From the IMG/VR virus record IMGVR_UViG_3300011116_000306, positions 1 through 33,909 of that record: 33,909 nt of DNA. One strand, given 5' to 3'. Made by a program: the position numbers and the translations under genes. This stretch comes from a virus. A model generated the notes under the pieces. It was not told the origin of the DNA and made no database searches. It saw nothing but the letters and a program-made list of their open reading frames with translations. Within the stretch, counting starts at the first letter, position 1. Each line of letters begins with the position of its first letter. Below are positions 11,360 through 32,285 of the stretch, piece by piece.

Positions 11360-13075
11360 ATGCCTACATTTGATGTAGATGTTGAAGGATCGACGTATGA
11401 AGTAGATGCGCCAGATGAGCGCACTGCTTGGGCGTGGGCCAACATTGAACATAAGAAGCAAAAAGAAAGCGTTACTCAGGACGTTGAAAAAATGCGTCAG
11501 GGTAGCTCCATTGAGCGTTTTGGACAGGGTGCATTGGCTAATGTTGAAAACATTGGCTATGGCCTAAAAGGACTGGTTTCCGATCTTACGCCAGAACAGC
11601 GGCGTGATGTTGCCGTAAACAAGGCTTTTCTTGAAGGCGTAAAGGGCGAAGGTATCAGGGCTGAAAATCTTGGTTCTCTTGCTGCTGATGTTGCTTCATT
11701 TGCCGCACCTGGCGGTTTGGCCGTAAAAGGCGCTCGGATGCTTCCTGCCGCTATGAAGTTGGCAAAGGCGGCTCCAATTCTTGCGCCTTTAGCTGGAGAA
11801 ACGGCGCTTGGTGCTGGTTTGTCTGCTGCTTATTCGCCTGAAGATCGTGGACAAGCTGCAATGTTTGGCGGCGCTGGTGGTGCGGCTGGATATGGGTTGA
11901 CTAGGGCTTTGGGTGAAGTTGCTGGTGGTGTTATAACCCCGACTGAAGAAGCAAAGCAGCTTATGGAGCAAGGGGTAAATGTTCCTGTATGGAAAGCAAC
12001 AGCAAACAGATTGCTGCGGGGTGCGGTAGAAAGAGCCAAAGCACTTCCAATAACAAAATCGTTTGTTTCTGGACAAGAGCGCGCCGCGCTCGAAAACGTA
12101 AACAAGAACTGGTTTGCTAAAGCAACCCCTCCATCTCCTGTTCTTGATGAAGCTGGAGGCGTATTGCGTTGGGAAACTGATAAGCCTGTAACAAGTATTG
12201 GTTCAGAAGGATTACAGGAATTAACTGATAAATTTGATGATGCTTACAAAGCCTTATACAAAGGGCGCGTAATTCCTGTTGATGATGCTTATAAACAAGA
12301 AATTCTTTCTACCACAAAAGACGTTAAAAAATATTATCCAAGAGTTTCTGAAGAATTTAATGCTGCTGTTACTCAAGCTGATGATTTGCTCAGAGAAGGA
12401 ACGCGCCCGTTCCGTGATCCTATTACTGGACAAATTAGAAAAGGGCGCGAAGGCGTTTCTCCTGAAGCAATTAAAGTTTCTATTGATTCTCTAAATAAGA
12501 GAATTACCGAAGCCTGGAATAGAGGTGAGGCTAATTTAGCTGAATCTTTAAGCGGCGTAAGGGACTCTTTAACTGATTTGCGTGTCAGGGGTTTGCCGCC
12601 TGAAGTCGCAAGCATGGCAAAGCCAATCAACGCGGCTTATGCAAACTTTAAACAGCTTCAAAAAGCTGCTCAATCTCCTGTAGTTCAGCGTGAAGGGATA
12701 ATTACGCCCGACAGGATGCTTTCAGCAATTAGATCAACCGATATAACTCCCGGTAAATCTGCTTTTGCAAGAGGCGCTGCGCGTAACCAGCCCGATGTTG
12801 TTTCGGCAGCTAAAGTATTAGGTAGTGAATTGCCAAATGTCGGACCTGGGACGGCTGAAAAATTATTGTTTCCTGGTATGTTAATGACTCCAAGTATTTT
12901 GGGTGCTGATTTTGGCATTGGTGCGGGATTGGCTGCGGCCACTAGTGCGCCTGGTCAAAGATTTCTATTAGGCGGATATGGTTATCAAAAGGCTTTACAA
13001 GATGCTTTGCGGCAAAATATCGCTCCGTATGCAGGAGTAGGCGGCGGCTTTCTTGGATATAAATATTCTAAATAG
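11360..13075 (+). CDS. Hypothetical internal virion protein (571 aa)
   Basis: ORF with AGGAAG SD. Has Gly/Ala-rich hydrophobic stretches. Assignment is by position before the tail fibre. Confidence 0.55.
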   Translation: MPTFDVDVEGSTYEVDAPDERTAWAWANIEHKKQKESVTQDVEKMRQGSSIERFGQGALANVENIGYGLKGLVSDLTPEQRRDVAVNKAFLEGVKGEGIRAENLGSLAADVASFAAPGGLAVKGARMLPAAMKLAKAAPILAPLAGETALGAGLSAAYSPEDRGQAAMFGGAGGAAGYGLTRALGEVAGGVITPTEEAKQLMEQGVNVPVWKATANRLLRGAVERAKALPITKSFVSGQERAALENVNKNWFAKATPPSPVLDEAGGVLRWETDKPVTSIGSEGLQELTDKFDDAYKALYKGRVIPVDDAYKQEILSTTKDVKKYYPRVSEEFNAAVTQADDLLREGTRPFRDPITGQIRKGREGVSPEAIKVSIDSLNKRITEAWNRGEANLAESLSGVRDSLTDLRVRGLPPEVASMAKPINAAYANFKQLQKAAQSPVVQREGIITPDRMLSAIRSTDITPGKSAFARGAARNQPDVVSAAKVLGSELPNVGPGTAEKLLFPGMLMTPSILGADFGIGAGLAAATSAPGQRFLLGGYGYQKALQDALRQNIAPYAGVGGGFLGYKYSK

Positions 13076-20717: not shown

Positions 20718-20735
20718 CACCTATTTTTTTGTGTG

Positions 20736-20765
20736 TTGACTTAATTGATACGGCTACTTTATTGT
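20736..20765 (+). promoter_or_regulatory. Candidate rightward sigma70-type promoter (-35 TTGACT, 18 nt, -10 TATTGT)
   Basis: Read on the plus strand, 27 nt upstream of ATG 20792. Confidence 0.35.
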
Positions 20766-20791
20766 CCTTGCCTCACCACAAGGGGGTTCAA

Positions 20792-21028
20792 ATGAAAACA
20801 ATCAAACATAAACGTGAACCTGCTTATAGCGTTATCATCACATTGGGCGGCGTAAGATCGACCGCTCGCATACTAGATATTGCGCCTAGTGCTGTTTCGC
20901 GCTGGCTCTTGCCTCGCAAGAAAACCAAGGCTGGCTTGATTCCTCAAGAGCATTGGTCGCGCATCTTAGAGCATTGCAAATTAAACAAGATTAAACTTAG
21001 CATTGATGACCTGACGCACGTTCGGTAG
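20792..21028 (+). CDS. Cro/YdaS-like helix-turn-helix regulator (78 aa)
   Basis: ATG 20792 has AAGGGGG upstream. The track start at 20729 is a TTG lying inside the promoter. HTH-like sequence GGVRSTARILDIAPSAVSRW. Confidence 0.55.
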   Translation: MKTIKHKREPAYSVIITLGGVRSTARILDIAPSAVSRWLLPRKKTKAGLIPQEHWSRILEHCKLNKIKLSIDDLTHVR

Positions 21029-21034
21029 GTCACA

Positions 21035-22960
21035 ATGAAAAATTCAGAATTTCTTGCGGCGCTTGGGGGCGCTGGCGAAGATCATTACCTATGGATTACG
21101 CACTTTGCGGCTGATCCTAGTCAGGCAAGCCAAGGTCAATGGGCTGGTCGAATGTACCAGCACAAAATCAGCCAAGCTAACTTGATTGACACAGTTTCCA
21201 GCCAGAATGTTTATTTCTGTCCAGCCGTTCTATCTGGCCTTGATGAAAGCGGATCGTTTAAACGCAGCAAAAACCACTTTTGCAGACTCGCCGCGCTTGG
21301 CGTTGATGACGTAAACATTGATGACATTAACGGCAAAGTCTCATGGATATTTGAGACAAGCCCGCTGAATTACCAAGCTGGCATATTGCTGGATGAAGCC
21401 GACCAGGACGCAGCCAATTTGGCGCTGGTCGATGCTGTTATGTCTGAATTGGCTGATAAAGGGCTTATTAAAGCAGACAAGTCTGGCAACAATGCTGTTC
21501 GTTATATGCGGTTGCCTCATGCAAAAAACACAAAACAACGCGCTACTGGACCGCATGACGTTCGTGTTGTTAGTTCTGACTTAATCAATAAATACAGCCT
21601 TGCAGATGCCTGTGCTGCTTTTGGAATTGATTTGGATGCCTTACGCGGCAAGCAATCAACTACAAAAGAAAGCATTAAAAATGTTACAGGCTCTAGCCAT
21701 GCAGAGCTAATTGCAGCATTAGCACAAGATGATCCTGCTGATCGCAGCTATCACGACCCATTACTAAAGCTATCTAGCAAACTTGTGTCTGCTGGACTAA
21801 ATCCAGGCGCAGTAGTCGAGCATTTGCGCGGGCTTATGCTGGCTATCCGTCCGCAAGACGCAACAGAACTTAGCCGGTGGCAATCACGCTACGATGAAAT
21901 TCCCAGGCTTGTTCTTGGCGCTCAAAAGTTTGCACCGGAGCCAAAGCAACAGCCTGTATCAGATGGCGGATTGCTGCTTGATATATCGACATTGGAAAGC
22001 CGGTCAAAAGCCGTTAAATGGCTTGTTAAAGGCTTTATTCCAGCCGACAGCATGGGCGTCTTGTTTGGTGCGTCAGGCGCATACAAGTCATTTCTGGCAA
22101 TAGATTTGGGATTGCATATTTCGCACAGTTTAAACTGGGTAAACCGTAAAACAAAGCCAGGCCCGGTTGTTTATGTCGCATCTGAAGGCGGCGCTGGTAT
22201 TTATCGCCGGATTGCAGCTTGGCATAAGCTAAACAAACGCCAACTGCCGAATAACTTTTGGACTTGTGCCACGCCGCTGGTTTTGACGGATGAAGATAGT
22301 CTGAAGGCTCTCAGAAAAGACATTCAGGCATTACCTGAACAGCCTAGCTTGATTATTGTTGATACATTCAGCCAGACGTTTTTTGGAGATGAAAACGCGG
22401 CCACGGATGTAAGTGAATATTTCCGGCAGATTAACACTCATTTGCGTGAGCCATTTAATGCGACGGTTATCGTAATCCATCACATTGGACACTCAAATGA
22501 TAATGCCGGTCGTCCTCGCGGCTCTAGCGCGTTCACAGCAAACGTAGATTTTCTGCTGGCTGTCAGGCGCGACGGCGATCTTGCAGCGTCGATTGAAGTA
22601 ACCAAACAGAAAGATGGCGATAAAATATCATCCCAGGCATTTAACCTGGAATCTCAGCCGTTATGGGAAGATGAAGATGGAGATACGATTACTTCGCTTG
22701 CAGCAAAGCATGTAAACATTATTGAGCAGATTAAAACCGGCAATGCAACGCTAGGCGAGACAGATAAAGTTATTTTGGATTTTATTACATTGAACGTCAG
22801 CGTTACCAAGAACGATGTAACTGCATTTGTTGCAAAGAAGTCAAAGAATGAAAAATCAGCTTACGTTATGGCAATGCGCTCGTTGAAAAAGCTGCAAGAG
22901 CTTACGCTGATTAGGCACACCATAGACGACAAGTATGTAGTCATGGGCGAGGTTTTATAA
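21035..22960 (+). CDS. Primase / RecA-like (AAA_25, RepA-type) replicative ATPase fusion (641 aa)
   Basis: C-terminal half has Walker A in GVLFGASGAYKS, Walker B in SLIIVDTFS, then VIHHIGHS...GRPRGSSAF. N-terminal half has LGVDDVN and ETSPLNYQAGILL, reminiscent of RepB-prime/primase-polymerase-type primases. Confidence 0.65.
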   Translation: MKNSEFLAALGGAGEDHYLWITHFAADPSQASQGQWAGRMYQHKISQANLIDTVSSQNVYFCPAVLSGLDESGSFKRSKNHFCRLAALGVDDVNIDDINGKVSWIFETSPLNYQAGILLDEADQDAANLALVDAVMSELADKGLIKADKSGNNAVRYMRLPHAKNTKQRATGPHDVRVVSSDLINKYSLADACAAFGIDLDALRGKQSTTKESIKNVTGSSHAELIAALAQDDPADRSYHDPLLKLSSKLVSAGLNPGAVVEHLRGLMLAIRPQDATELSRWQSRYDEIPRLVLGAQKFAPEPKQQPVSDGGLLLDISTLESRSKAVKWLVKGFIPADSMGVLFGASGAYKSFLAIDLGLHISHSLNWVNRKTKPGPVVYVASEGGAGIYRRIAAWHKLNKRQLPNNFWTCATPLVLTDEDSLKALRKDIQALPEQPSLIIVDTFSQTFFGDENAATDVSEYFRQINTHLREPFNATVIVIHHIGHSNDNAGRPRGSSAFTANVDFLLAVRRDGDLAASIEVTKQKDGDKISSQAFNLESQPLWEDEDGDTITSLAAKHVNIIEQIKTGNATLGETDKVILDFITLNVSVTKNDVTAFVAKKSKNEKSAYVMAMRSLKKLQELTLIRHTIDDKYVVMGEVL

Positions 22961-23177
22961 TTGGCTCAAGCCCATGATCTACTCGTATTTTATCAACAAA
23001 CTCTGGATATGTTTTTCTTGTTAAGTAAGTTTTCTTATTATTCTTTATAACAATTATGTTTTTAAGTGTTTTGATTACTCGATAGCCAAACTCAAATAAA
23101 AAAGTTTCATTGTTTAATGATGCTCCAATTTCAAATTTTCTAATTTGAGGAAGTTTGGGTTTTCTTTTTCTTGGCAT
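22941..23177 (-). CDS. Hypothetical Lys/Asn-rich protein (78 aa) in an AT-rich islet
   Basis: ATG 23177 has GGTGGG upstream. The 3' end overlaps the primase 3' end by 20 nt (convergent). Weak coding evidence. Confidence 0.35.
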   Translation of the reverse strand: MPRKRKPKLPQIRKFEIGASLNNETFLFEFGYRVIKTLKNIIVIKNNKKTYLTRKTYPEFVDKIRVDHGLEPIIKPRP

Positions 23178-23316
23178 TTGCCCACCGCTTTGCAACGATC
23201 TTGCGATAATACTCAGCATTGCCGCGCACCTTTGCTTTGCCAGTGCCGGAAGCTCCACCCTTCTTACCAATAGACGCCAAATACGCTTTAACGCTCAAAT
23301 CCAAATCGTTAGTCAT
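23140..23316 (-). CDS. Small basic protein (58 aa)
   Basis: ATG 23316 has GAGGA upstream. Translation MTNDLDLSVKAYLASIGKKGGASGTGKAKVRGNAEYYRKIVAKRWANAKKKK... 8-nt overlap with the upstream gene. Confidence 0.5.
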   Translation of the reverse strand: MTNDLDLSVKAYLASIGKKGGASGTGKAKVRGNAEYYRKIVAKRWANAKKKKTQTSSN

Positions 23317-23494
23317 TAGTGTTTTTATCCTCATACAATTTCCCATGCGGTCCACACACGCCATTCGGGTTCCGCGCCTCCATAGTCAGCGCGTCGGCAA
23401 CTTCTGGATGGTGACATTCGCCCAGGCTGCCAACCGGCCAAACGGCGTGTTTACACGACATGCACATCACGAAGCGGTTGTTGGTTATGGTCAT
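23309..23494 (-). CDS. Small Cys/His-rich protein (61 aa), possible zinc binder
   Basis: ATG 23494. Translation MTITNNRFVMCMSCKHAVWPVGSLGECHHPEVADALTMEARNPNGVCGPHGKLY... No strong SD. Confidence 0.4.
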   Translation of the reverse strand: MTITNNRFVMCMSCKHAVWPVGSLGECHHPEVADALTMEARNPNGVCGPHGKLYEDKNTND

Positions 23495-23507
23495 AAATGT
23501 TGCTTTG

Positions 23508-24032
23508 CTATGGTTGATCGCCGCGCAGGCGGCGTAGGAGTTCAAGAATGGCGTCTACGGCCACGATGCCGTTTCCGCTCGCGATGCTGTCGCGGTACTG
23601 CCACATGATGTGCGCAAGCTGTTCCTTCGTCGGCAACGCGGGCTGGTGTGTGGCTATCCTAGCCTGAAGGTCCCAGATTTTCTCTTTGGCCTGGTCAAGC
23701 GACACCGTTTTGCGCTCGGGGCAGCACGACAAGAATCCACCGGCCTTCAGCGCCTCAAGGCTTCGCATCGATCCACATCCCAAGCAAATGGTAGGCGGTT
23801 CGGGCTGGTGTGTGGTAGAGGGTGAGGAAGCGGGGCGCATGACGTTCTCCAAGAAGTCACGTGTGTCGTCGCTCATGCCATCCCCCACCCCAGAGCCAGA
23901 CAGAAGCTCCTTGAGTGCGCGGGCAATTTCACAGGCATCGGTGCTGGCGATACCGTGACTTGATGGACCAAAGCCACCTGTCGCCAGAATGGCGTTGCAC
24001 TTGTCTATGAGGGCCTGCCTATCGGTCGTCAT
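23508..24032 (-). CDS. Hypothetical protein (174 aa)
   Basis: GC-rich ORF with an ATGA overlap with the upstream gene. Contains CLGCG...SCCPERK. Confidence 0.6.
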   Translation of the reverse strand: MTTDRQALIDKCNAILATGGFGPSSHGIASTDACEIARALKELLSGSGVGDGMSDDTRDFLENVMRPASSPSTTHQPEPPTICLGCGSMRSLEALKAGGFLSCCPERKTVSLDQAKEKIWDLQARIATHQPALPTKEQLAHIMWQYRDSIASGNGIVAVDAILELLRRLRGDQP

Positions 24033-24382
24033 GGGGTGCTCCTGATGGCTTGGGCGATGCCATGTAAAGTCGTGGCTGAAATCGGTGTTTCACCCGCCGC
24101 ATACCCTCGGCCTTCGCGTTTTAGAGATAACCATGCAGAGCCATCAGCGTGAATGCCGATCAAAATGCCCTTGTCGCGCCACTGAATTATAAGGTTTTCA
24201 TCATCAAATCCGACAAAGGGACACCGCTCCCGCTCTGCCTTGGTGGCCTGGGCTACACGGTGGTCTATGGTGGCGAGGATTTCTCTGAGTTTGCCAATGG
24301 TGATGCGAGCGTCGTCGTCATCGCTATCTGCCACTTCAACCGCGCAATACAGATCGGATAGCGGCTCTGGTGTCGTCGTCAT
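24029..24382 (-). CDS. Hypothetical acidic protein (117 aa)
   Basis: Start set at ATG 24382 (MTTTPEPL...) because it forms an ATGA overlap with the upstream small ORF. Confidence 0.55.
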   Translation of the reverse strand: MTTTPEPLSDLYCAVEVADSDDDDARITIGKLREILATIDHRVAQATKAERERCPFVGFDDENLIIQWRDKGILIGIHADGSAWLSLKREGRGYAAGETPISATTLHGIAQAIRSTP

Positions 24383-24558
24383 TGCGGCTTCTCCATGCAA
24401 ACATGGTCGTAATACGTTGAACGGATTTCCCCGGTCTGCATCTTTGGCAGCACCTCCAAAGTAAACGCCGCCTCGCAGGATTCCTTGCTGCGGTAATCAA
24501 TCGGCACCGCTAACGAACCGGTGCGCCAAACAAAGATCAGCAATATCCATGTCGTCAT
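24379..24558 (-). CDS. Small protein (59 aa) with N-terminal hydrophobic/signal-like segment
   Basis: Not in the track. Translation MTTWILLIFVWRTGSLAVPIDYRSKESCEAAFTLEVLPKMQTGEIRSTYYDHVCMEKPQ. ATGA overlaps at both ends. Confidence 0.45.
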   Translation of the reverse strand: MTTWILLIFVWRTGSLAVPIDYRSKESCEAAFTLEVLPKMQTGEIRSTYYDHVCMEKPQ

Positions 24559-24980
24559 TGTCTTGTGTCCTCTATGTGTATGAGGGCCCGAACAGCGGCG
24601 AGGCAGAGGGCTAGGGCGGGCGTCTTAGCCTTGGCGTCAGGAGCGATGCACCCAACGGTCGCCGAAACGACACTTTCCATGCCGCCGGACACAGTCCACG
24701 GGCGTCCTTCCGGCACCAGCGTGAGCGCGGCGTCTATGCTGGTATCTGGAAAGCCCCGGAGAGCGGACACAGACAGATCATCCACCAACCCCTGGCCGGT
24801 GATTTCAAGCTCATCCTCCCCAGAGTCACCGCACCCAACCGACCATTTGTAGGGGACATTTTCACAGCCTTTTTTGCAGTGGGTCAGGTAAAGCAGAGCG
24901 GCGCGGTCCTGCATGTGCAGTGGCCCCTTCGCCTCGGCCAGCCTGCGCTCTAGTTCTCTCAGTGACTCAAGCTTGGTCAT
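24555..24980 (-). CDS. Hypothetical protein (141 aa), loosely DUF2591/ABA-sandwich-like
   Basis: Start set at ATG 24980 (MTKLESL...), because the longer track ORF would overlap the 25031-25264 gene. The C-terminus ...AKTPALALCLAAVRALI resembles that family. The assignment is weak. Confidence 0.45.
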   Translation of the reverse strand: MTKLESLRELERRLAEAKGPLHMQDRAALLYLTHCKKGCENVPYKWSVGCGDSGEDELEITGQGLVDDLSVSALRGFPDTSIDAALTLVPEGRPWTVSGGMESVVSATVGCIAPDAKAKTPALALCLAAVRALIHIEDTRQ

Positions 24981-25030
24981 AGGGTGCCTACTTATTGGCG
25001 GTGAGTGCGGTGGTGATGGCGGAGAGGGCG

Positions 25031-25264
25031 TCACTTCCACCACCACTTGCCTTCCAGCAGCCGCCCCAAGATCGACAACGTACAGCCAAAGCACAACAGC
25101 AAACCCATCACATACACCGTCCACTGCGCTGCGTTGCTGGTCAGGCCAACGCGATACGCTACGTTGCTGATGTACTGACACACGCCGACAAAAGCCAACG
25201 TGACAAGGATGATTGCGCCCATGACACTTAAAAGCGCACCAACGGCTTGAATGTCGTCTTTCAT
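25031..25264 (-). CDS. Membrane protein (77 aa, two TM helices)
   Basis: AAAGGAAA SD. Hydrophobic helices AVGALLSVMGAIILVTLAFVGV and WTVYVMGLLLCFGCTLSILG. Confidence 0.6.
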   Translation of the reverse strand: MKDDIQAVGALLSVMGAIILVTLAFVGVCQYISNVAYRVGLTSNAAQWTVYVMGLLLCFGCTLSILGRLLEGKWWWK

Positions 25265-25288
25265 GTTTAGTTTCCTTTTGTTGAAATG

Positions 25289-25546
25289 TTAGCCGTCGCC
25301 GGAGCCGTAGCCGGAGCCGTAGCCGGAGCCGTAGCCGTAGCCGTCGCCGTAGCCGTAGCCGGAGCCGTAGCCGGAGCCGGAGCCGTAGCCGGAGCCGGAG
25401 CCGTCGCCGTAGCCGTAGCCGTAGCCGGAGCCGTCGCCGTAGCCGGAGCCGGAGCCGTCGCCGTAGCCGTAGCCGGAGCCGTAGCCGGAGCCGGAGCCGT
25501 CGCCGTAGCCGTAGCCGGAGCCGTAGCCGTCATTTACTTTGCCCAT
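25289..25546 (-). CDS. Alternating (Gly-Tyr/Ser/Asp)n low-complexity mini-protein (85 aa); reading frame uncertain
   Basis: ATG 25546 has GAGG 6 nt upstream. Product is MGKVND + (G-X)39 + G with X only Y, S or D. Two other minus-strand frames are also open across the array. Confidence 0.45.
   Translation of the reverse strand: MGKVNDGYGSGYGYGDGSGSGYGSGYGYGDGSGSGYGDGSGYGYGYGDGSGSGYGSGSGYGSGYGYGDGYGYGSGYGSGYGSGDG
25292..25528. repeat. Hexanucleotide array: GCC + 39 units of GTAGCC / GGAGCC / GTCGCC
   Basis: Read directly from the sequence. No unit deviates from these three variants. Confidence 0.95.
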
Positions 25547-25911
25547 CCCGCACCTCGAAGGCACTTTTCGCCTTCTTTCGTCGTCGGAATAATCTCAATC
25601 ACTTGCATCAGCAAAATGCTGTCAACGGAATCACTAATCTTGGATGTCTTTTCCACGCCCTTGGACGCAATTTCGTGCAGCGTATTGGCACCCGTCCACG
25701 ACCAAATGCGCTTGGCATCAGTCAGCACACATTCCTGGCCGTTGCGGGATTTCAAAACCCCCACATGCACACCAGCCGAATAAGTGCGGACTACAACGTA
25801 TTTCCCAACAAACTCGCAGCACATATTGTTAGACGCCGCCTGTTGATTACCAAACATACACGCAAGTTGCTTGGCTTCTCCGATAGTCAAATCATCAATT
25901 TTCATGTTCAT
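25534..25911 (-). CDS. Conserved-looking hypothetical phage protein (125 aa)
   Basis: AGGAGAA SD. The sequence GKYVVVRTYSAGVHVGVLKSRNGQECVLTDAKRIWSWTGANTLHEIA resembles proteins I have seen in other phages. No family name assigned. Confidence 0.65.
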   Translation of the reverse strand: MNMKIDDLTIGEAKQLACMFGNQQAASNNMCCEFVGKYVVVRTYSAGVHVGVLKSRNGQECVLTDAKRIWSWTGANTLHEIASKGVEKTSKISDSVDSILLMQVIEIIPTTKEGEKCLRGAGWAK

Positions 25912-25923
25912 TCTCCTGTGGTG

Positions 25924-25957
25924 AAAAAATGCCAGCTTCGCACACTACTGCGCTGGC
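25924..25957 (-). terminator. Candidate intrinsic terminator/attenuator inside the leftward operon
   Basis: Minus strand reads GCCAGC-GCAGTAGTGTGCGAA-GCTGGC followed by ATTTTTT. It sits between the stop at 25993 and the SD of the 25911 gene. Confidence 0.5.
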
Positions 25958-25992
25958 GACAGTTTAGGGGACGCTTCGGGGCGCGTGTGCGA

Positions 25993-26175
25993 TTAGTTTA
26001 ATTCTTGCCTGATCCAAATTTGAACGCCGGTCTGCATTAAGGTTTCATGCAAAAAATTTATATGTTCCTGCATTTTGCTGCGCTGGCTTTTCAAATCTCT
26101 TACCAGCCTCACTAGTTGGCGATGGCTGTCCAGCAGATCGTTGTACGGTATTTTGTACTGCGATTTTGCACTCAT
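25993..26175 (-). CDS. Small helical protein (60 aa); overlaps the alternative ORF 26045-26281
   Basis: MSAKSQYKIPYNDLLDSHRQLVRLVRDLKSQRSKMQEHINFLHETLMQTGVQIWIRQELN looks protein-like. It overlaps the zinc-ribbon ORF by 131 nt in another frame. Confidence 0.4.
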   Translation of the reverse strand: MSAKSQYKIPYNDLLDSHRQLVRLVRDLKSQRSKMQEHINFLHETLMQTGVQIWIRQELN

Positions 26176-26281
26176 AACACCGCACTACGCCTTTCTGTGG
26201 TTCCCAAACAGCCCATGCACCTTGCGCCAATCCAGCGCCGCACCTGCATTTGCAAGCCCATTTGACGTTTATTGCCTTCAT
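26045..26281 (-). CDS. Small zinc-ribbon-like protein (78 aa as an ORF; C-terminal half doubtful)
   Basis: ATG 26281 forms an ATGA overlap with the upstream stop. MKAINVKWACKCRCGAGLAQGAWAVWEPQKGVVRCYECK carries CxC...CxxC. The tail looks like non-coding translation. Confidence 0.4.
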   Translation of the reverse strand: MKAINVKWACKCRCGAGLAQGAWAVWEPQKGVVRCYECKIAVQNTVQRSAGQPSPTSEAGKRFEKPAQQNAGTYKFFA

Positions 26282-26817
26282 TCGCAGCGCCATTCTTCAA
26301 CCTGGCGCTTCAGCCCTCTGGGCCATTCGGTCGAAGTCGTAAATGACTTGTCACGAAAAACTACTTTGTCGGTCGGCTGAATAGTCAAACGTCCATTGTT
26401 TAAACGCACAAACGTAAACTCTTTGCTTTGCCTTGGGTCACGGCTGAAAGCATCGTTGATTGGCGCAACAGTGAATAGATATACGCCTTTGTGCCCACCT
26501 AGCGTTTCACAATCCAAACCATCCAACGCCGGATAAACCAACGTGCTAAACTGTGGTCCGTAGCAATCCCAAATCTGCGCGTCCTTAATGCTCCAATCCA
26601 GCTTGGGACACTGTGTAAACGCCAGCGCATGGGGCGGTAGGTTGCGATAAATCGCACCGTTTTCCAAAAGCACGTTACAGCCCCAAGCCAATCCGTATTT
26701 GCTTACCAGGCCAAACCAACGCACCGGCACAAAGCCTATCGCCTCACGCATAAAAAACGCGCTGTCTGCGTATATGTCCAAATGATACGGCAGCGCACCG
26801 CTATTACTGTAGATCAT
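26278..26817 (-). CDS. Hypothetical protein (179 aa)
   Basis: Long ORF in the leftward operon. No motif recognised. Confidence 0.6.
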   Translation of the reverse strand: MIYSNSGALPYHLDIYADSAFFMREAIGFVPVRWFGLVSKYGLAWGCNVLLENGAIYRNLPPHALAFTQCPKLDWSIKDAQIWDCYGPQFSTLVYPALDGLDCETLGGHKGVYLFTVAPINDAFSRDPRQSKEFTFVRLNNGRLTIQPTDKVVFRDKSFTTSTEWPRGLKRQVEEWRCE

Positions 26818-26857
26818 GCACTCACCCTAACGCTAAGGCAACCCGCTTGGCAATAGG

Positions 26858-27127
26858 CTATTGGCAACACTGTTTGACCATCTGCTCGATGCACAATTCA
26901 TCAGTCTGGATATGCTGATAAATGTCACCTGGCGCGTCAGTGCCGTCAGCCAGCTTGGCCGATAGTACGTCGATCTCTGGCCCGTGCGCGGGTTCCCAGT
27001 AGCTACCAGGAAACCCTGGCATGTAATTGTATTGCACCGTCACATCAATTTCCTCCGGCGCGTCCTCGGGATGGTCGGGGCGTAGGTGCGGCAGATAGAT
27101 TGACAGCGTGATTTCGTGTTTACGCAT
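26858..27127 (-). CDS. Hypothetical acidic protein (89 aa)
   Basis: Start overlaps the upstream stop by 8 nt. Translation MRKHEITLSIYLPHLRPDHPEDAPEEIDVTVQYNYMPGFPGSYWEPAHGPEIDV... Confidence 0.55.
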   Translation of the reverse strand: MRKHEITLSIYLPHLRPDHPEDAPEEIDVTVQYNYMPGFPGSYWEPAHGPEIDVLSAKLADGTDAPGDIYQHIQTDELCIEQMVKQCCQ

Positions 27128-27866
27128 GGCACTGCTCCAACAGCGAGATTAACTTATCGGACATGCGCTGATATGCCCCCGCCGCCGCATCCGCCGCCTC
27201 CGCCGCCACATCCGCCGCCGCCCTCGCCGCCGCCCTCGCCGCCGCCCTCGCCGCCGCCCTCGCCGCCCACCTCGCCGCCCACGCCGCCGCATCCGCCGCA
27301 TCCGCCGCCGCCGCCCACGCCGCCGCCCGCGCCGCCCACCTCGCCGCCGCTTTCGCCGCATCCGCCACCCACGCCTCCGCCCGCGCCGCCTCCGCCGCCC
27401 CCCGCGCCGCCGCCTCACGGTCAACCGGCTCGCCGCAAGTCAGCGGCAGCAACACATCAGCGCATTTCGCAATAGCAGCGTTTACACGCTTGTCGTTTGT
27501 TTTCGGCAATTCGTCGGTCAACAGCCAGTGCAAGAACTTCCACCCCACCCGCGATAAATCCGCGCCAGGGATGATGGCGGCGCTAAACCGCACAGGCCAC
27601 TTCATCGCGTCGGCATTGGCAAGCCCCTCAAATATTGCATCTTCTAGCCGCGCCAGCATCTGCGGGATACCGAGCAGCCGTTCGTATTCGGCATGTTTGT
27701 TTGTTTCAATCGCGCCGAGACTGTGCAAAGTACAGCCCACCGCGCACCCTTTGCCGTCCTCCCAATACTGGCCCTTCACCAGCCGGTCGACGTCGGCGTG
27801 AGCCTGTAGATCAGCCAGTAGCTTGGCCTTGATGGCCGGGTCATTGTGATATGCGAGCAGGGTCAT
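27120..27866 (-). CDS. Two-domain protein (248 aa): globular N-terminal domain plus Ala/Arg/Trp-rich repeat domain
   Basis: Start set at ATG 27866 (ATGA overlap). Non-repetitive N-terminus (...KGQYWEDGKGCAVGCTLHS...) followed by ...AARWAARAAAWAAAADAADAAAWAARWAARAAARAAARAAARAAADVAAEAADAAAGA and the tail YQRMSDKLISLLEQCHA. Confidence 0.65.
   Translation of the reverse strand: MTLLAYHNDPAIKAKLLADLQAHADVDRLVKGQYWEDGKGCAVGCTLHSLGAIETNKHAEYERLLGIPQMLARLEDAIFEGLANADAMKWPVRFSAAIIPGADLSRVGWKFLHWLLTDELPKTNDKRVNAAIAKCADVLLPLTCGEPVDREAAARGAAEAARAEAWVADAAKAAARWAARAAAWAAAADAADAAAWAARWAARAAARAAARAAARAAADVAAEAADAAAGAYQRMSDKLISLLEQCHA
27214..27261. repeat. Four perfect tandem copies of the 12-mer GCCGCCGCCCTC (encodes AARA x4 on the minus strand)
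   Basis: Counted directly. It is embedded in about 240 nt (27176-27420) of GCC-periodic sequence. Confidence 0.95.
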
Positions 27867-27952
27867 GCGATCACCATAAGCCAAAGATAAATTACACCTA
27901 ACAGCGCGAGCAGCGCCGCACCTTCTGCGATTGCGATAAATAGCTGTTTCAT
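27863..27952 (-). CDS. Tiny hydrophobic peptide (29 aa, single TM)
   Basis: Not in the track. Translation MKQLFIAIAEGAALLALLGVIYLWLMVIA. ATGA overlaps with both the upstream stop and the downstream start. Confidence 0.45.
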   Translation of the reverse strand: MKQLFIAIAEGAALLALLGVIYLWLMVIA

Positions 27953-28182
27953 TGTTCCCACCCTGTAATGACTACGAACTCAGCCCCACCTTCGGGCAAC
28001 TGCACCTGTAGATACTTGCCAGTCATTCCATGCACCCGCATGAACGATTGCGCGGCTTTCAAATGATCGGCCTTTGTGTTTTGTGCCGGCGAAAAGAGCA
28101 TTTTGGCATCATGGCTCCAGGCGCTTATGCGTCCGGTTTTTGTGCCTGTGGGCGGGTGGTACTTGGTTAAAATGGCGAGCAT
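27949..28182 (-). CDS. Hypothetical protein (77 aa)
   Basis: GAGGA SD. Translation MLAILTKYHPPTGTKTGRISAWSHDAKMLF... Confidence 0.55.
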   Translation of the reverse strand: MLAILTKYHPPTGTKTGRISAWSHDAKMLFSPAQNTKADHLKAAQSFMRVHGMTGKYLQVQLPEGGAEFVVITGWEQ

Positions 28183-28200
28183 GTAATCCTCAAGAAATAT

Positions 28201-28223
28201 GGGCGGGGCGCTAGGCCCCGCCC
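28201..28223 (-). terminator. GC-rich hairpin (GGGCGGGGC-n5-GCCCCGCCC) after the SprT-like gene; weak terminator or RNA-stability element
   Basis: Perfect 9-bp stem. On the minus strand it is followed by ATATTTCTTG, a poor U-tract. A second small hairpin (28225-28239) encloses the stop codon. Confidence 0.4.
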
Positions 28224-28230
28224 GGTTGCG

Positions 28231-28794
28231 TTACGCAACGTTGATTGACCCGCCGCAATGGCAAGTCGGAAGGCCAGCGTCCACATTCTTTTGCGCTGTG
28301 CGGCAGGTCCAGCCGCAATCGTCGCAAGCCAACTTAATCATGCGGGTATTTTGCTTTTTGCGCCCGGAGAGTGCGGTATTGAGCGCCGCATGAGGATATG
28401 CGCCAAGCTGAGAGATAATGGCCGTTAGGCGGGCTGTAAGATCGGCACCGGCAGTTGTGCTAGTCATTTTGCCCTCCAGGCCAAGGGCAAGCGCAAGGCG
28501 TTTAAACGCGCCTTTGTGCCCATGCTCTAGGCCAACAGCGGCATGAACCAACTCATGCACAAGGATAGCCAGGACGTTGGTTGCGTTGGACTGTGAGGGA
28601 CAAATAAAGACTTCGGTGGTTGCATCGGCGCTTGCGGCAGGGGACCAGCACTCGCCAATGCGCTTGAGCTTTCCGCCCTTGCCGCCAGCAGGGATACCGA
28701 CAGATACGCGGACGGGAGGGAGCGGGTAACCCTGGGCATTGAACCAGGGGGACATAAGAGCGGTAGCAGCGTTAAGGTATTCTTCGCGGGTCAT
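28231..28794 (-). CDS. SprT-like zinc metallopeptidase with C-terminal zinc ribbon (187 aa)
   Basis: HExxH in LAILVHELVHAAVGLEHGHKGAFKRLA. C-terminal CDDCGW...CHCGG. Confidence 0.65.
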   Translation of the reverse strand: MTREEYLNAATALMSPWFNAQGYPLPPVRVSVGIPAGGKGGKLKRIGECWSPAASADATTEVFICPSQSNATNVLAILVHELVHAAVGLEHGHKGAFKRLALALGLEGKMTSTTAGADLTARLTAIISQLGAYPHAALNTALSGRKKQNTRMIKLACDDCGWTCRTAQKNVDAGLPTCHCGGSINVA

Positions 28795-28823
28795 GGGCTG
28801 TATTCCTTTGCAGGGTTAAAGCT

Positions 28824-28852
28824 AACGGGGAGGACGTTATGCCCTCCCCGTT
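28824..28852. other. 10-bp hairpin (aacggggagg / cctccccgtt); the T-tract follows only in the plus orientation
   Basis: Read directly. It lies between two minus-strand genes, and the minus-strand -35-like TTGACA abuts it. Confidence 0.4.
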
Positions 28853-28858
28853 TTATTG

Positions 28859-29041
28859 TCAAGCGGGTTGTTTATAAACTACTTCAAACGTTGGTAATGG
28901 TTCCATTTTAAGTTCTTTCGCAGCATCTATTTCCCTTTCGCCCCAAAATTTCGCCTTTTTGCGCGTGGCAAAGTATTTAATAATTTCGCCAGGGCATTGG
29001 GGCCAATTATCTTTGATAATGCAGACGTAAAGTGACTTCAT
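28859..29041 (-). CDS. Hypothetical protein (60 aa), lower GC than its neighbours
   Basis: ORF MKSLYVCIIKDNWPQCPGEIIKYFATRKKAKFWGEREIDAAKELKMEPLPTFEVVYKQPA, 2 nt after the upstream stop. Confidence 0.5.
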   Translation of the reverse strand: MKSLYVCIIKDNWPQCPGEIIKYFATRKKAKFWGEREIDAAKELKMEPLPTFEVVYKQPA

Positions 29042-29043
29042 GG

Positions 29044-29409
29044 TTAAGCCTCCTCTGTTTCAAGTTCAAATTGTTCTAATTCGCTTTCAACACTAGACGC
29101 CCATAATTCAACCGCAGTTGAAAGGTAGAAACAGGCTAGGCCGGACCAGCTTTCGCCTCGCTTTGGTTGCGGTAGTTCGCCCAGCTGATCCTCAATAAAC
29201 TGTAAGACTTCATCGCCATCCTCGGACATGACAGCAAGCGCCTTGTGATACGTCACGGCCGGCATATATGCGCCTGAAGCGCAGCCGCCTTGGACAATGG
29301 CGGCGACATCACTGGGGGTAATGTTTTGGTCAATCCAGATCGGCAGATTGAGGTCTAGGCCAGGAATGTCTTCAATCGCGGTTTCTGTGTTCCAGAGGTC
29401 CATTGTCAT
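29044..29409 (-). CDS. Strongly acidic protein (121 aa)
   Basis: By my count, about 23 Asp/Glu against 3 Lys/Arg. Conserved-looking core ITPSDVAAIVQGGCASGAYMPAVTYHKA. ATGA overlap with the upstream gene. Confidence 0.6.
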   Translation of the reverse strand: MTMDLWNTETAIEDIPGLDLNLPIWIDQNITPSDVAAIVQGGCASGAYMPAVTYHKALAVMSEDGDEVLQFIEDQLGELPQPKRGESWSGLACFYLSTAVELWASSVESELEQFELETEEA

Positions 29410-29675
29410 TGCTCCTTGATGCCGGTGGCTTTGGCGATGGCTTCATCGCACAATTCCCTAATCCCATTCGCATCAAGAGAAGGCGCGTGAAGTGCAATTG
29501 TTTCCAAAATTTGAAGCATGAAAGGCGCGGCGGCGATTAGGGCGGCGTTGGCGTCGATTGTTTCCACAGACGTATCGCCATAATTTCCGTCTGCATCAAA
29601 AACCGTATAATTTGCGCGGCTGTAATCTTTGTGTATGGTCCACGGGCCGGGGGTGTGTTTGGTGGTCATTGTCAT
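29406..29675 (-). CDS. Hypothetical protein (89 aa) with N-terminal HTPGPW motif
   Basis: ORF MTMTTKHTPGPWTIHKD... Its start context GAGCAATGACAATG is shared with the next gene. Confidence 0.55.
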   Translation of the reverse strand: MTMTTKHTPGPWTIHKDYSRANYTVFDADGNYGDTSVETIDANAALIAAAPFMLQILETIALHAPSLDANGIRELCDEAIAKATGIKEQ

Positions 29676-29680
29676 TGCTC

Positions 29681-29863
29681 TTAGATATTGCGCGGCTGAT
29701 TGGTTACGGCTTCAAAGCCATAGCCAAGCTGTTTGATTGTTTCGATCTGATGGTGGTTAAAGGTTTTTACGCCGAGCAGCTTGGCAAACAGTTTTGCCTG
29801 ATCGCAGACCGGGTAAACCAGGTCATTGCCGTAAACGCTGCGGAATTGAATTTGGAGGGTCAT
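29681..29863 (-). CDS. Hypothetical protein (60 aa), first gene of the leftward operon
   Basis: ATG 29863 with AAGGAA SD is preferred over the longer track ORF. Translation MTLQIQFRSVYGNDLVYPVCDQAKLFAKLLGVKTF... Confidence 0.55.
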   Translation of the reverse strand: MTLQIQFRSVYGNDLVYPVCDQAKLFAKLLGVKTFNHHQIETIKQLGYGFEAVTNQPRNI

Positions 29864-29900
29864 GTTGCGTATTCCTTTTGTGGGTTGTGCTAACGGCTTG

Positions 29901-29929
29901 TTTATATATAGCCCTAATGTATAACACAA
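29901..29929 (-). promoter_or_regulatory. Candidate leftward promoter (-35 TTGTGT, 17 nt, -10 TATAAA)
   Basis: Read on the minus strand, about 40 nt upstream of ATG 29863. Flanked by the ATAAACAA(C/G)CCG motif copies. Confidence 0.3.
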
Positions 29930-30046
29930 GCGGGTTGTTTATTACATGGTTGTAAGGTGGGAAAATATTTTATGCTGCAAGTGCGTAAAAATTCAGATAT
30001 GCCGATAAATACGCGTTAACATCGTTGGTAACTTTACGACATTTTA

Positions 30047-30074
30047 TTGCGAGCGCGAGTTATGCCTATAAAAT
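30047..30074 (+). promoter_or_regulatory. Candidate rightward (late-operon) promoter (-35 TTGCGA, 16 nt, -10 TAAAAT)
   Basis: Read on the plus strand, about 300 nt upstream of the terS-like gene. Confidence 0.3.
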
Positions 30075-30224
30075 AAGGATAAGTCGAATTGCTGTGGTGC
30101 AATATAACTGGTGGAAACAAGCAATAACATTTTAAGCCGCTTGCGTAAACTGGAATGGAAACGCGGAATAACTGTTTAGTAACAAGGCATTACATTTGAA
30201 TAACTTTGGGCGGGCCAATGGAAA

Positions 30225-30283: not shown

Positions 30284-30380
30284 GATAAAAACGGCTGGAT
30301 GATAGAGCGGCCCAGGCGTGAAAACTGATGTGCGCGTTTTTGTGCTTGCGTAAGAATTCGAGGGGTGCAAAAGATTGAGA

Positions 30381-30833
30381 ATGCAAATGAGTAAAGAAAT
30401 CAAAAAAGACGGAGAGAAAATAGACCGGAGGAGGCTCAATCTTCCGCCTACAGGATCAAAGGGCAGACCCAAGGGAGCGCCTAACAAAGTCACGGCAAGT
30501 ATTAGAGCCGCCGTTGAAAGAGCCGCCAGGGAAGTCACTACGCGAGACGGGAAACGTGGCCTAACTGAATGGATGCTCGAAAGAGCGCGTGGCGGAATAC
30601 AAGACCGCGCCCTGTTTGTTGGCCTAGTCAAAGCCGCCCTACCGCTCAAGGTGGACGCCACCGTCCAAAGCATCCAGATTAATCTAGGCTGGCTGGCCGC
30701 TCGCCCGATCGATGCAGCAGCACCCGGCACGATGCCGGCCATCATGCCGCCCGTCATCGAGGCCCCCCCAAGCGCGGAAGGCCAGGACGTTTACACGGGG
30801 CAGGCGGAAAACATAGACAAATCAACGGCTTAG
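30381..30833 (+). CDS. terS: Putative small terminase subunit (about 150 aa; start uncertain at 30381 or 30387)
   Basis: Lies immediately upstream of terL. The basic N-terminus with GRPKGAPNKVT is typical of terS-like DNA-binding proteins. The track start at 30375 is a TTG. Confidence 0.45.
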   Translation: MQMSKEIKKDGEKIDRRRLNLPPTGSKGRPKGAPNKVTASIRAAVERAAREVTTRDGKRGLTEWMLERARGGIQDRALFVGLVKAALPLKVDATVQSIQINLGWLAARPIDAAAPGTMPAIMPPVIEAPPSAEGQDVYTGQAENIDKSTA

Positions 30834-30950: not shown

Positions 30951-32285
30951 ATGGACATTAATGAATACGTCCCGCGAGACATATTTTTGCCGCTGCACCA
31001 GCGGGACAAACGTTGGGCAGTTGTTATAGCGCACCGCCGCGCTGGCAAGACTGTTGCGATGTGCGCGGATATATTGATTAGCGCATTGCAGTGTCGGCAT
31101 CCAAAGCCGCAGTTTGCGTATTTAGCGCCGTTTCGGGATCAGGCGAAGAAGGTGGCGTGGAGTTATATTAAGGATTTGAGCAAACCGTTATGGGCGGCGC
31201 AGCCTAATGAAACGGAATTGCATGTAAGTTTATTTAACGGAAACAATGGGGTTAGCCGGATTTATGTAGGTGGTGCGGATCATCCTGATGCTTGGCGCGG
31301 GATGTATTTTGACGGTGTTGTGTTGGATGAGGTTGGGCAGATTAGGCCGAGTGCGTGGTATTCGGTTTTGCGCCCGGCATTATCGGATCGGCGCGGGTGG
31401 GCGATATTTGCTGGCACCCCGGCTGGTAAGAACTTCTTTTGGCAGATGCGCGAGGAAGCTCGGTTGAATCCTGGGACGCACATGCTTTTGGAATTACCGG
31501 CGTCCAAGACGAATATTTTGCATCCTGATGAGTTGCGGGATGCGCGGGCGCAGATGACTGAAGAAACGTATGCGACTGAATATGAAATTAGTTTTGATGC
31601 GGCTATGCCTGGGGCGTATTACTCCAAATTGATTGGGGAGGCGTATGACGAGGGGCGGGTTGGTGTATTTCCGGCCAGTTCTGAATTTCCGGTCGATCTT
31701 GTGGCTGACCTTGGGTACACGGACAGTTGCAGTTGGTGGGGTTGGCAGACGCAGCCTGATGGCTACAAGATTGTAGATTTTTACGAAGCCGATAATCAGC
31801 CGATTGCTCATTATATTGAATGGGTTAAAACCAGACCGTATAAGGTTAGGGATATATATTTGCCGCATGATGCGAAGGCCAAGAGCCTTCAGACCGGCAA
31901 GAGCATTATTGAGCAGTTTTTAGCAAACGGCATACACCCGAAGCTGGTTCCTGAACTGTCTTTGCAGGATGGGATTGAGGCGGCCAGGCTTACTTTGCCG
32001 AAGTGTTGGTTTGACGAAAAAACGGTTTATGATGGGCTGGAACACTTAAGGGCGTATAAGCGGGAGTGGGACGAGCGCACCCAGACGTATCGCAACAGGC
32101 CACGGCATGACCAGCATAGCCATGCGTCTGATGCGTTTAGGTATTTTGCGCTGAGTTGCAAGCCGGTATCGAGCGCAAAACGGAGCAGCACTGCAAGCAG
32201 CGTTTACACGGCCAGAAGTATGTATGAATTTAATTTAGAAGATATTTGGGAATGTCAGCCTAAAACAAGCGGAAGGTTGGGCTAA
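30951..32285 (+). CDS. terL: Terminase large subunit (444 aa)
   Basis: Walker A-like AHRRAGKT, Walker B in GVVLDEVGQ, and a C-terminal RNaseH-like nuclease region ending HDQHSHASDAFRYF. Confidence 0.9.
   Translation: MDINEYVPRDIFLPLHQRDKRWAVVIAHRRAGKTVAMCADILISALQCRHPKPQFAYLAPFRDQAKKVAWSYIKDLSKPLWAAQPNETELHVSLFNGNNGVSRIYVGGADHPDAWRGMYFDGVVLDEVGQIRPSAWYSVLRPALSDRRGWAIFAGTPAGKNFFWQMREEARLNPGTHMLLELPASKTNILHPDELRDARAQMTEETYATEYEISFDAAMPGAYYSKLIGEAYDEGRVGVFPASSEFPVDLVADLGYTDSCSWWGWQTQPDGYKIVDFYEADNQPIAHYIEWVKTRPYKVRDIYLPHDAKAKSLQTGKSIIEQFLANGIHPKLVPELSLQDGIEAARLTLPKCWFDEKTVYDGLEHLRAYKREWDERTQTYRNRPRHDQHSHASDAFRYFALSCKPVSSAKRSSTASSVYTARSMYEFNLEDIWECQPKTSGRLG

Follow-up and report, generated by a model that had tools for sequence, protein, structure and literature searches.

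A variable arm of small genes in a circularly assembled aquatic tailed phage, with a conserved acidic anchor

The class I genes 0.3-0.7 of phage T7, the nin and b/ea regions of lambda and anchored anti-defence islands consist of small open reading frames (ORFs) on the same strand with ATGA-type coupling. They are dispensable in relatives, have mosaic content between conserved flanks and encode a strongly acidic protein near the promoter-proximal end. Hot-spots of this type are a repeated source of new genes in the conflict between phages and their hosts. Here, we describe a leftward array of small genes at positions 22941-29863 of the IMG/VR virus record IMGVR_UViG_3300011116_000306, the whole of which (33,909 nt) was analyzed and is referred to as the window. 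The array shares all of these properties and adds a member to a known type of phage region rather than founding a new one. Unlike the regions of the model phages, it has no member homologous to their characterized genes, it is broken by hairpins and repeated leaders, and it lies in a circularly assembled genome with a headful-type terminase, so there is no fixed first-entering end by which ‘early’ could be defined. We consider it rather probable that the array serves a complete, circularly assembled aquatic tailed phage as its variable accessory arm.

The genome is that of a complete, circularly assembled tailed phage of 33.8 kb from aquatic metagenomes. The record is rated 100% complete in the class of direct terminal repeats. 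Because its terminal repeat of 127 bases falls within a gene, we read the repeat as the assembly overlap of a circular or circularly permuted genome rather than as a physical end. The array takes up about one fifth of the genome, running leftward from a divergent intergenic region beside terS and converging on the primase-helicase gene. The genes and modules that surround it are:

17.6-20.7 kb, leftward: recombination module with a RusA-like/PDDEXK protein, a Cas4-type exonuclease, a DUF669 single-stranded DNA-binding protein and a Sak4-like ATPase
20729-21028, rightward: Cro-like gene
21035-22960, rightward: primase-helicase
30375-30833, rightward: terS
30951-32285, rightward: terL

From terS and terL, the virion genes continue rightward across the record junction to about 15.8 kb.

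The interval between the primase and terS genes is a recombination hot-spot. Among relatives collected via the SprT-like protein of the array and via the primase, the flanking Cro-like, primase, terS and terL genes are conserved and the content between them is variable. The interval measures 7.4 kb in this phage. It is ~ 5.5 kb in relative L019, whose primase is 81% identical and which has 10 of the 22 array ORFs in common with the order kept, ~ 5.9 kb and rearranged in L005 and L008, and just ~ 0.5-1.5 kb in about 18 relatives at a greater distance (terL ~ 70% identical). Eight of the 22 ORFs have no homologue in any collected relative, and these lie mostly in G+C-rich stretches (58-64%, versus 49% for the genome) and have a poorer codon fit. 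Gene-sized insertions and deletions also separate this phage from near-identical ones in contigs of four independent studies. Gene 1 is missing in all four (29663 is joined to 29864, with 7 other letters between), and an ORF of 174 amino acids (aa) is deleted (23538-24002) in contigs of three. In variants, an ORF of 141 aa is skipped (one case), an 81-nt segment of gene 2 is replaced, and an acidic ORFan of 117 aa is diverged or replaced.

The cargo of relatives at this site includes enzymes. L005 encodes a TET-associated glycosyltransferase (11885-12745; PF20691, E 2e-36) in the primase-terS interval, directly before the homologue of a 179-aa array protein, and the gene is also found in L008. 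L029 has a PAPS-reductase-like gene in the same interval, and L004 has a PLD-like gene in a wider SprT-anchored stretch in which neither primase nor terS was seen. The glycosyltransferase hints at DNA hypermodification in the L005/L008 lineage.

An earlier note on this DNA, made from the letters alone, had described a minus-strand array of about 21 small genes. Gene calls and codon-frame scoring bear out the array, for which we count 22 genes. We trained a codon table on 14 long genes outside the array and scored all six frames of each ORF; the annotated minus-strand frame ranks first for 19 of the 22, the exceptions being a 29-aa ORF, one member of an overlapping pair and a repeat gene. The seven 4-nt ATGA junctions noted earlier are exact (24029, 24379, 24555, 26278, 27863, 27949 and 29406), as are two 8-nt overlaps (23309-23316 and 27120-27127), and translational coupling is possible given these nine start/stop overlaps. 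Also correct was the description of the products as acidic proteins (net charges of -20, -11 and -6), Cys-rich mini-proteins, three small hydrophobic proteins and two low-complexity proteins. The statement that no function could be recognized apart from a SprT-like peptidase holds in part. There is a clear Pfam match to DUF6948, six ORFs have PHROG matches and three are members of families with 200 to > 1500 clusters, while none falls in a named replication, virion or anti-defence family. Two of the checks that the note had proposed gave results in line with it: profile and structure searches placed no ORF in a replication or virion family, and gene turnover in related phages was found at the primase-terS interval.

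Two pairs of gene-start junctions are near-repeats (29401-29420 and 29667-29686, 18 of 20 positions identical; 28783-28817 and 29852-29886, 26 of 35). They take in the ribosome-binding site and first codons and are possible sites of cassette exchange.

These data bear on whether the array has any coherent programme. It could be mostly neutral or selfish cargo, that is, morons and ORFans delivered by illegitimate recombination at a permissive site, with a few membrane proteins acting in superinfection exclusion. The G+C-rich insertions with poorer codon fit, the eight ORFs without homologues, the presence/absence polymorphism in nature and the three small hydrophobic proteins are all consistent with this. 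We nevertheless regard it as highly unlikely, as selection on expression is indicated by the dense packing, the start/stop overlaps and the conservation of regulatory motifs, the annotated frames are the best-scoring ones in nearly all ORFs, and five families are large and strongly conserved.

The constant element of the arm is the product of gene 3:

29044-29409, minus strand: gene 3, acidic helical protein of 119-121 aa, net charge -20

Its family comprises at least 1099 clusters with 60-88% identity and an invariant GGCASGAYMPAVTY loop. Acidity is a family trait, with a mean net charge of -19.2 and 14 alignment columns that are ≥ 80% acidic. We surveyed 71 viral loci that carry a homologue and compared the downstream 3 kb in 55 of them. 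TerL is divergent and 1.4-4.6 kb upstream in all 13 loci where it is seen, and the primase is convergent downstream in eight loci. The downstream 3 kb hold 386 ORFs that form 330 clusters, 284 of them singletons, and the first downstream gene alone represents 46 families among the 55 loci. Given that gene 3 is constant and the genes behind it are almost all different, we consider it to be the conserved anchor of a hypervariable arm.

The closest characterized counterpart of the anchor is T7 Ocr (gp0.3, PDB 1s7z), a DNA mimic that blocks type I restriction-modification (R-M) and BREX (PMC7261183). The two are similar in length (119 versus 117 aa), net charge (~ -20), helical content and promoter-proximal position, whereas the invariant GGCASGAYMPAVTY loop of the anchor has no Ocr counterpart. 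The anchor model (predicted local distance difference test score, pLDDT, of 83) has three helices and a poorly modelled loop. In a VIA structural alignment against 48,161 chains, its top neighbor is T7 Ocr (1s7z_A; Z 4.2, root-mean-square deviation 3.8 Å over 86 residues), a weak match with a Z far below the level that proves a common fold; the next neighbor has a Z of 3.1. Foldseek with the same model returned nothing, Ocr included. Profile comparison by hhalign gave E values of 0.25 against T7 Ocr and 0.16 against a 7-sequence Ocr alignment, co-linear, with a probability < 1% and not significant. An Atlas search with the acidic protein gave no usable match.

The earlier note had taken the array for a candidate host-takeover and anti-defence arsenal. 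The dense same-strand array, the hypervariable hot-spot and the acidic, Ocr-sized, promoter-proximal protein agree with this; searches of Pfam, PHROGs and NCBIfam do not, as they matched no known anti-restriction, anti-CRISPR or host-shutoff family and placed no ORF of the window in a named anti-defence family (Ocr, ArdA, Acr or others). That the array is mainly such an arsenal, expressed as one early operon, is possible although on balance unlikely. The hot-spot is like known anti-defence islands in being hypervariable around a conserved anchor, the acidic, Ocr-sized promoter-proximal protein has Ocr as its top fold match, a relative encodes a DNA glycosyltransferase in the same interval, and T7 Ocr sets a precedent as a DNA mimic directed against type I R-M and BREX (PMC7261183). 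Set against this, no ORF matches a named anti-defence family, the sequence-profile comparison with Ocr is not significant, several members belong to very conserved families (55-75% identity, hundreds to thousands of clusters), and hairpins and repeated leaders interrupt the array.

A more far-reaching version would make the acidic 119-aa protein, found in > 1000 clusters and always promoter-proximal and divergent from the terminase operon, the founder of an Ocr-like family of DNA-mimic decoys that anchors a hypervariable counter-defence island in a large group of aquatic podovirus-like phages. On this view, undescribed anti-defence genes would be stored in its palindrome-controlled cargo, the SprT-like protease among them. 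We think this version quite unlikely to be correct as it stands. The earlier interpretation is partly supported: counter-defence is made plausible by the layout of the hot-spot, by the acidity of the anchor and by the enzymes for DNA modification that relatives encode at this site.

The single operon that had been proposed is contradicted by three terminator-like hairpins, a duplicated leader module and a conserved palindrome, which would split the array. Their positions suggest at least three units: genes 1-4; the SprT-like gene to 26858; and 26817 onward, with an extra break before the DUF6948 gene. The elements are:

29927-29937, no strand: palindrome copy 1, exact CAAGCGGGTTG
29901-29929, minus strand: candidate promoter TTGTGT-17-TATAAA before gene 1, overlapping one palindrome copy and one TATAAACAAsCCG copy
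28860-28870: palindrome copy 2, within the last codons of gene 4
28824-28852, minus strand: 12-bp G+C-rich hairpin between gene 4 and the SprT-like gene, free energy -28.9 kcal/mol, z -6.2
28201-28223, minus strand: terminator-like hairpin 3' of the SprT-like gene, 9 G-C pairs, U-poor tail, z -2.8
26839-26849, no strand: palindrome copy 3, within the 40 nt that separate the 179-aa gene from the gene before it
25924-25957, minus strand: 6-bp stem GCCAGC/GCUGGC followed by A-U6, directly before the DUF6948 gene

The palindrome CAAGCGGGTTG (family CAAGC-N-GCTTG) occurs in exactly 3 copies, at 29927, at 28860 and, inverted, at 26839; copies with one mismatch lie at 30133, 29773, 29725, 29235 and 25863. 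There are 11 sites with one mismatch or fewer, compared with 2.8 expected, and 8 of the 11 are within 25863-30143, four of them clustered at the start region. Perfect CAAGC-N-GCTTG sites recur in relatives. L003 has them ahead of its first gene, its SprT-like gene and its 179-aa gene, and L019 has one ahead of the 179-aa gene. L018 is without the 179-aa gene, and the palindrome there (3573) precedes the Zn-ribbon gene. The palindrome is thus placed like a putative operator for a dimeric regulator. The leader is duplicated as well: ~ 100 bases before gene 1 align with those before the SprT-like gene, and the aligned copies include TATAAACAAsCCG, CCGTTAGC and the ribosome-binding region.

Three of the listed elements had been put forward earlier. 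The promoter is weak as a sigma-70 site (8 of 12 consensus positions, below the scan threshold) but overlaps a conserved motif; a consensus scan of the region found 5 sigma-70-like sites, compared with 9.7 in shuffles. The hairpin at 28201-28223 is confirmed by its 9 G-C pairs and z of -2.8. At 25924-25957, the 6-bp stem followed by U6 is present, but the minimum free energy of the region is no better than that of shuffles (z -0.2). The hairpin at 28824-28852 was not in the earlier note, and none of 200 shuffles folds equally well.

Behind the anchor, three proteins of the array belong to conserved groups:

28231-28794, minus strand: SprT-like zinc metalloprotease of 187 aa, HELVH ... HGxxF, with a C-terminal Cys-rich ribbon
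27120-27866, minus strand: 248-aa protein with a conserved 150-aa N-terminal domain and a variable Ala/Arg/Trp repeat tail
26278-26817, minus strand: 179-aa all-beta protein of a large aquatic-phage family, labelled ferredoxin in phrog_3704

Like the SprT/Spartan/Wss1 zincins, the SprT-like protein has an HExxH motif followed further downstream by a His within HGxxF, and its C-terminal part forms a Cys-rich ribbon. Unlike them, it scores below threshold with the Pfam SprT-like model (PF10263; 13 bits versus a cut-off of 25.6, E 0.093) and has no sequence match to solved structures. We base the family placement on the motif and on ~ 50% identity to genes annotated as ‘SprT-like protease’ in actinophages (Microbacterium and Arthrobacter phages). 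The protein also matches phrog_6361 (E 7.5e-47), and H80, E81, H84 and H93 are invariant in 10 homologues.

The N-terminal domain of the 248-aa protein defines a family of at least 1592 clusters with no Pfam domain. Its members range from 144 to 297 aa because the Ala/Arg/Trp tail, which is encoded by GCC-periodic DNA, varies. An Imm5-like identity, suggested by an Atlas feature score of 0.82, found no support, as PF21805 gave no match at E up to 5 and the 120 listed homologues have no Pfam domain.

The 179-aa family includes at least 201 clusters at ~ 55% identity. Its homologues in cyanophages (of Pseudanabaena and Aphanizomenon) and in Pelagibacter and Flavobacterium phages are labelled ‘phosphoribosylaminoimidazole synthetase/PurM’, ‘ferredoxin’ or hypothetical. 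The model of the protein is all-beta (pLDDT 91), and Foldseek and VIA matched it only to uncharacterized viral proteins (template modelling score 0.86), with no solved fold above a Z of 5. Neither a PurM chain nor a ferredoxin fold was among these matches; absence from the listing does not exclude a PurM fold. A ferredoxin is contradicted by the lack of a four-Cys cluster, as only C85 is invariant and C47 nearly so in 33 sequences. Judging from the all-beta model and the missing Cys cluster, the PurM and ferredoxin labels do not fit the protein. PDB sequence searches with the SprT-like, 179-aa, 248-aa and DUF6948 proteins and with two family profiles gave nothing useful.

A further part of the array with recognizable relatives is a DUF6948 module, preceded by an overlapping gene pair:

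26045-26281, minus strand: Zn-ribbon protein of 78 aa, CxC...CxxC, conserved just over the first ~ 43 aa
25993-26175, minus strand: helical/coiled-coil-like protein of 60 aa, conserved in 3 relatives
25534-25911, minus strand: DUF6948 protein of 125 aa (PF22253, 100.7 bits versus a cut-off of 27)
25289-25546, minus strand: (Gly-Tyr/Ser/Asp)n repeat protein of 85 aa, encoded by a hexamer array (period 6, 40.2 copies)

An X-Gly repeat ORF is found at the stop codon of the DUF6948 gene in 12 of 12 other, unrelated viral loci and in 0 of 45 control loci. The module is the same as in these 12 loci, and here it lies within a G+C-rich insertion that the closest relatives lack. A Thr-Ala-Pro ORF (25267-25533) was considered as the product of the hexamer array and dismissed, as the alternative frames differ between phages and the Gly-Tyr frame is constant. 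In the L057 and L058 loci, the Gly-Tyr repeat is the N-terminal part of a 241-259-aa protein, and L054 encodes at least two repeat paralogues (a third similar ORF is visible) with the common N-terminus MNNFCKVFGK. Over the G+C-rich coding repeats at 25310-25590 and 27277-27557, the depth of public metagenome contigs exceeds that of the flanks by a factor of hundreds to thousands, and the contigs are broken at these points. The excess suggests that similar repeats are common in those communities and makes the assembled array lengths untrustworthy.

The 78-aa and 60-aa genes overlap by 131 nt in different frames, and the ATG of the 60-aa gene is inside the CY(E/D)C codons that end the Zn-ribbon. 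Both frames are open in four relatives, and the tail of the 78-aa protein is not conserved. The pair at 25993-26281 could be a true overlap or a frameshift fusion.

Proteins of these kinds raise the alternative that the array supplies nin-region-like helpers for the DNA and RNA transactions of the phage, useful but singly dispensable. The SprT-like protein would clear DNA-protein adducts, the Zn-ribbon and basic mini-proteins would bind nucleic acid, and DUF6948 with its Gly-Tyr partner would handle RNA or form an assembly. We regard this as unlikely, even though the array adjoins the replication module, with the primase gene at its end, the motifs of the SprT-like protein do not vary, small Cys-rich and basic proteins are present, the DUF6948/Gly-Tyr pair is beside single-stranded DNA-binding protein, HNH and methylase genes in other phages, and five members are highly conserved. 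Profiles found no domain for binding DNA or RNA, an interval of 0.5-1.5 kb is enough for distant relatives, and such extreme cargo turnover is unusual for housekeeping helpers.

The remaining genes of the array, from its start to its end, are:

29681-29863, minus strand: gene 1, 60 aa, no homologue in collected relatives
29406-29675, minus strand: gene 2, 89 aa, phrog_1273 (E 1.6e-14)
28859-29041, minus strand: gene 4, 60 aa, 80% identity in L003
27949-28182, minus strand: 77-aa protein, phrog_3199, 80-91% identity in L003, L018 and L019
27863-27952, minus strand: 29-aa hydrophobic mini-protein, conserved in 3 relatives, maximum hydropathy 2.44
26858-27127, minus strand: 89-aa acidic ORFan, net charge -11
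25031-25264, minus strand: 77-aa two-helix membrane protein, ~ 50% identity in 6 relatives, hydropathy 2.61
24555-24980, minus strand: 141-aa protein in a G+C-rich insertion, unnamed family of 110 representative clusters
24379-24558, minus strand: 59-aa ORFan with a hydrophobic N-terminus
24029-24382, minus strand: 117-aa acidic ORFan
23508-24032, minus strand: 174-aa ORFan
23309-23494, minus strand: 61-aa Cys/His-rich mini-protein, 46-86% identity in 8 loci
23140-23316, minus strand: 58-aa basic protein, isoelectric point 10.4
22941-23177, minus strand: 78-aa basic protein, last gene of the arm

The last gene shares 38 nt with the gene before it and, at its 3' end, 20 nt with the convergent primase gene. 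Its G+C content is 29% (18% at third codon positions), compared with 49% for the genome, and it is 100% conserved in L018 and 53% in L019. A likeness of the 141-aa protein to NinX/DUF2591 was considered and not confirmed: there was no Pfam hit at E up to 5, no phage sequence was matched by tblastn, and a PDB search with the family profile came back empty. Also negative were tblastn of the 89-aa gene 2 product against phages, a search for relatives of the 174-aa ORFan in viral contigs, and NCBIfam on 10 ORFs. No Rfam family and no tRNA turned up in scans of the complete genome.

The array is near-identical in runs from seven studies, which cover viral, marine, seawater, estuary, reservoir and drinking-water/sediment metagenomes and one unlabelled source. 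These runs contain 50-98% of sampled 31-mers of the array, and the span of salinity is unusually wide for a single phage lineage. No RNA run is among the public runs listed as containing array sequence, and megablast of the array against 50,697 phage records gave no match. The closest cultured terL relatives (~ 37-40% identity) are phages of Methylophilales, Rhodoferax, Microcystis and Pelagibacter. A host search with the SprT-like protein against genome contigs returned a single metagenome-assembled genome fragment and identified no host.

So, how might the array work as the variable accessory arm of this phage? A dimeric DNA-binding regulator may read the palindrome and set the timing or balance of the array relative to the divergent packaging/late operon. 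The targets of the products, shortly after entry, would be the host or the phage’s own nucleic-acid transactions. The acidic anchor might be a protein-binding decoy, possibly a DNA mimic, and the SprT-like zincin a protease acting on a DNA-bound or defence protein; the cargo behind these two would be exchangeable, host-specific modules.

Several points weigh against this account. No array member matches a known anti-defence family. The modelled fold match of the anchor to Ocr is weak (Z 4.2), with a profile comparison that is not significant, and the invariant GGCASGAYMPAVTY loop and 65-75% identity over > 1000 clusters speak less for generic DNA mimicry than for a particular partner or chemistry that is conserved. 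The candidate promoter is a weak sigma-70 match, and termination may fail at hairpins with U-poor tails. Some of the 386 ORFs counted downstream of the anchor may be spurious. Judged by their conservation, the five strongly conserved members would fit conserved accessory functions at least as well as counter-defence.

This locus offers as its most useful leads the anchor protein, the palindrome that resembles an operator, and three strongly conserved, large phage families that have confident models and no assigned function, one of which carries ill-fitting PurM/ferredoxin labels in GenBank. The conserved anchor gene is a handle with which to pull hundreds of different cargo sets from metagenomes, and the conserved palindrome is one for testing its putative regulator. 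If it is true that the anchor is a decoy inhibitor, Ocr-type counter-defence would extend to abundant freshwater and marine phages. If the anchor is not a decoy, the array is still a well-mapped case of gene turnover at the population level.

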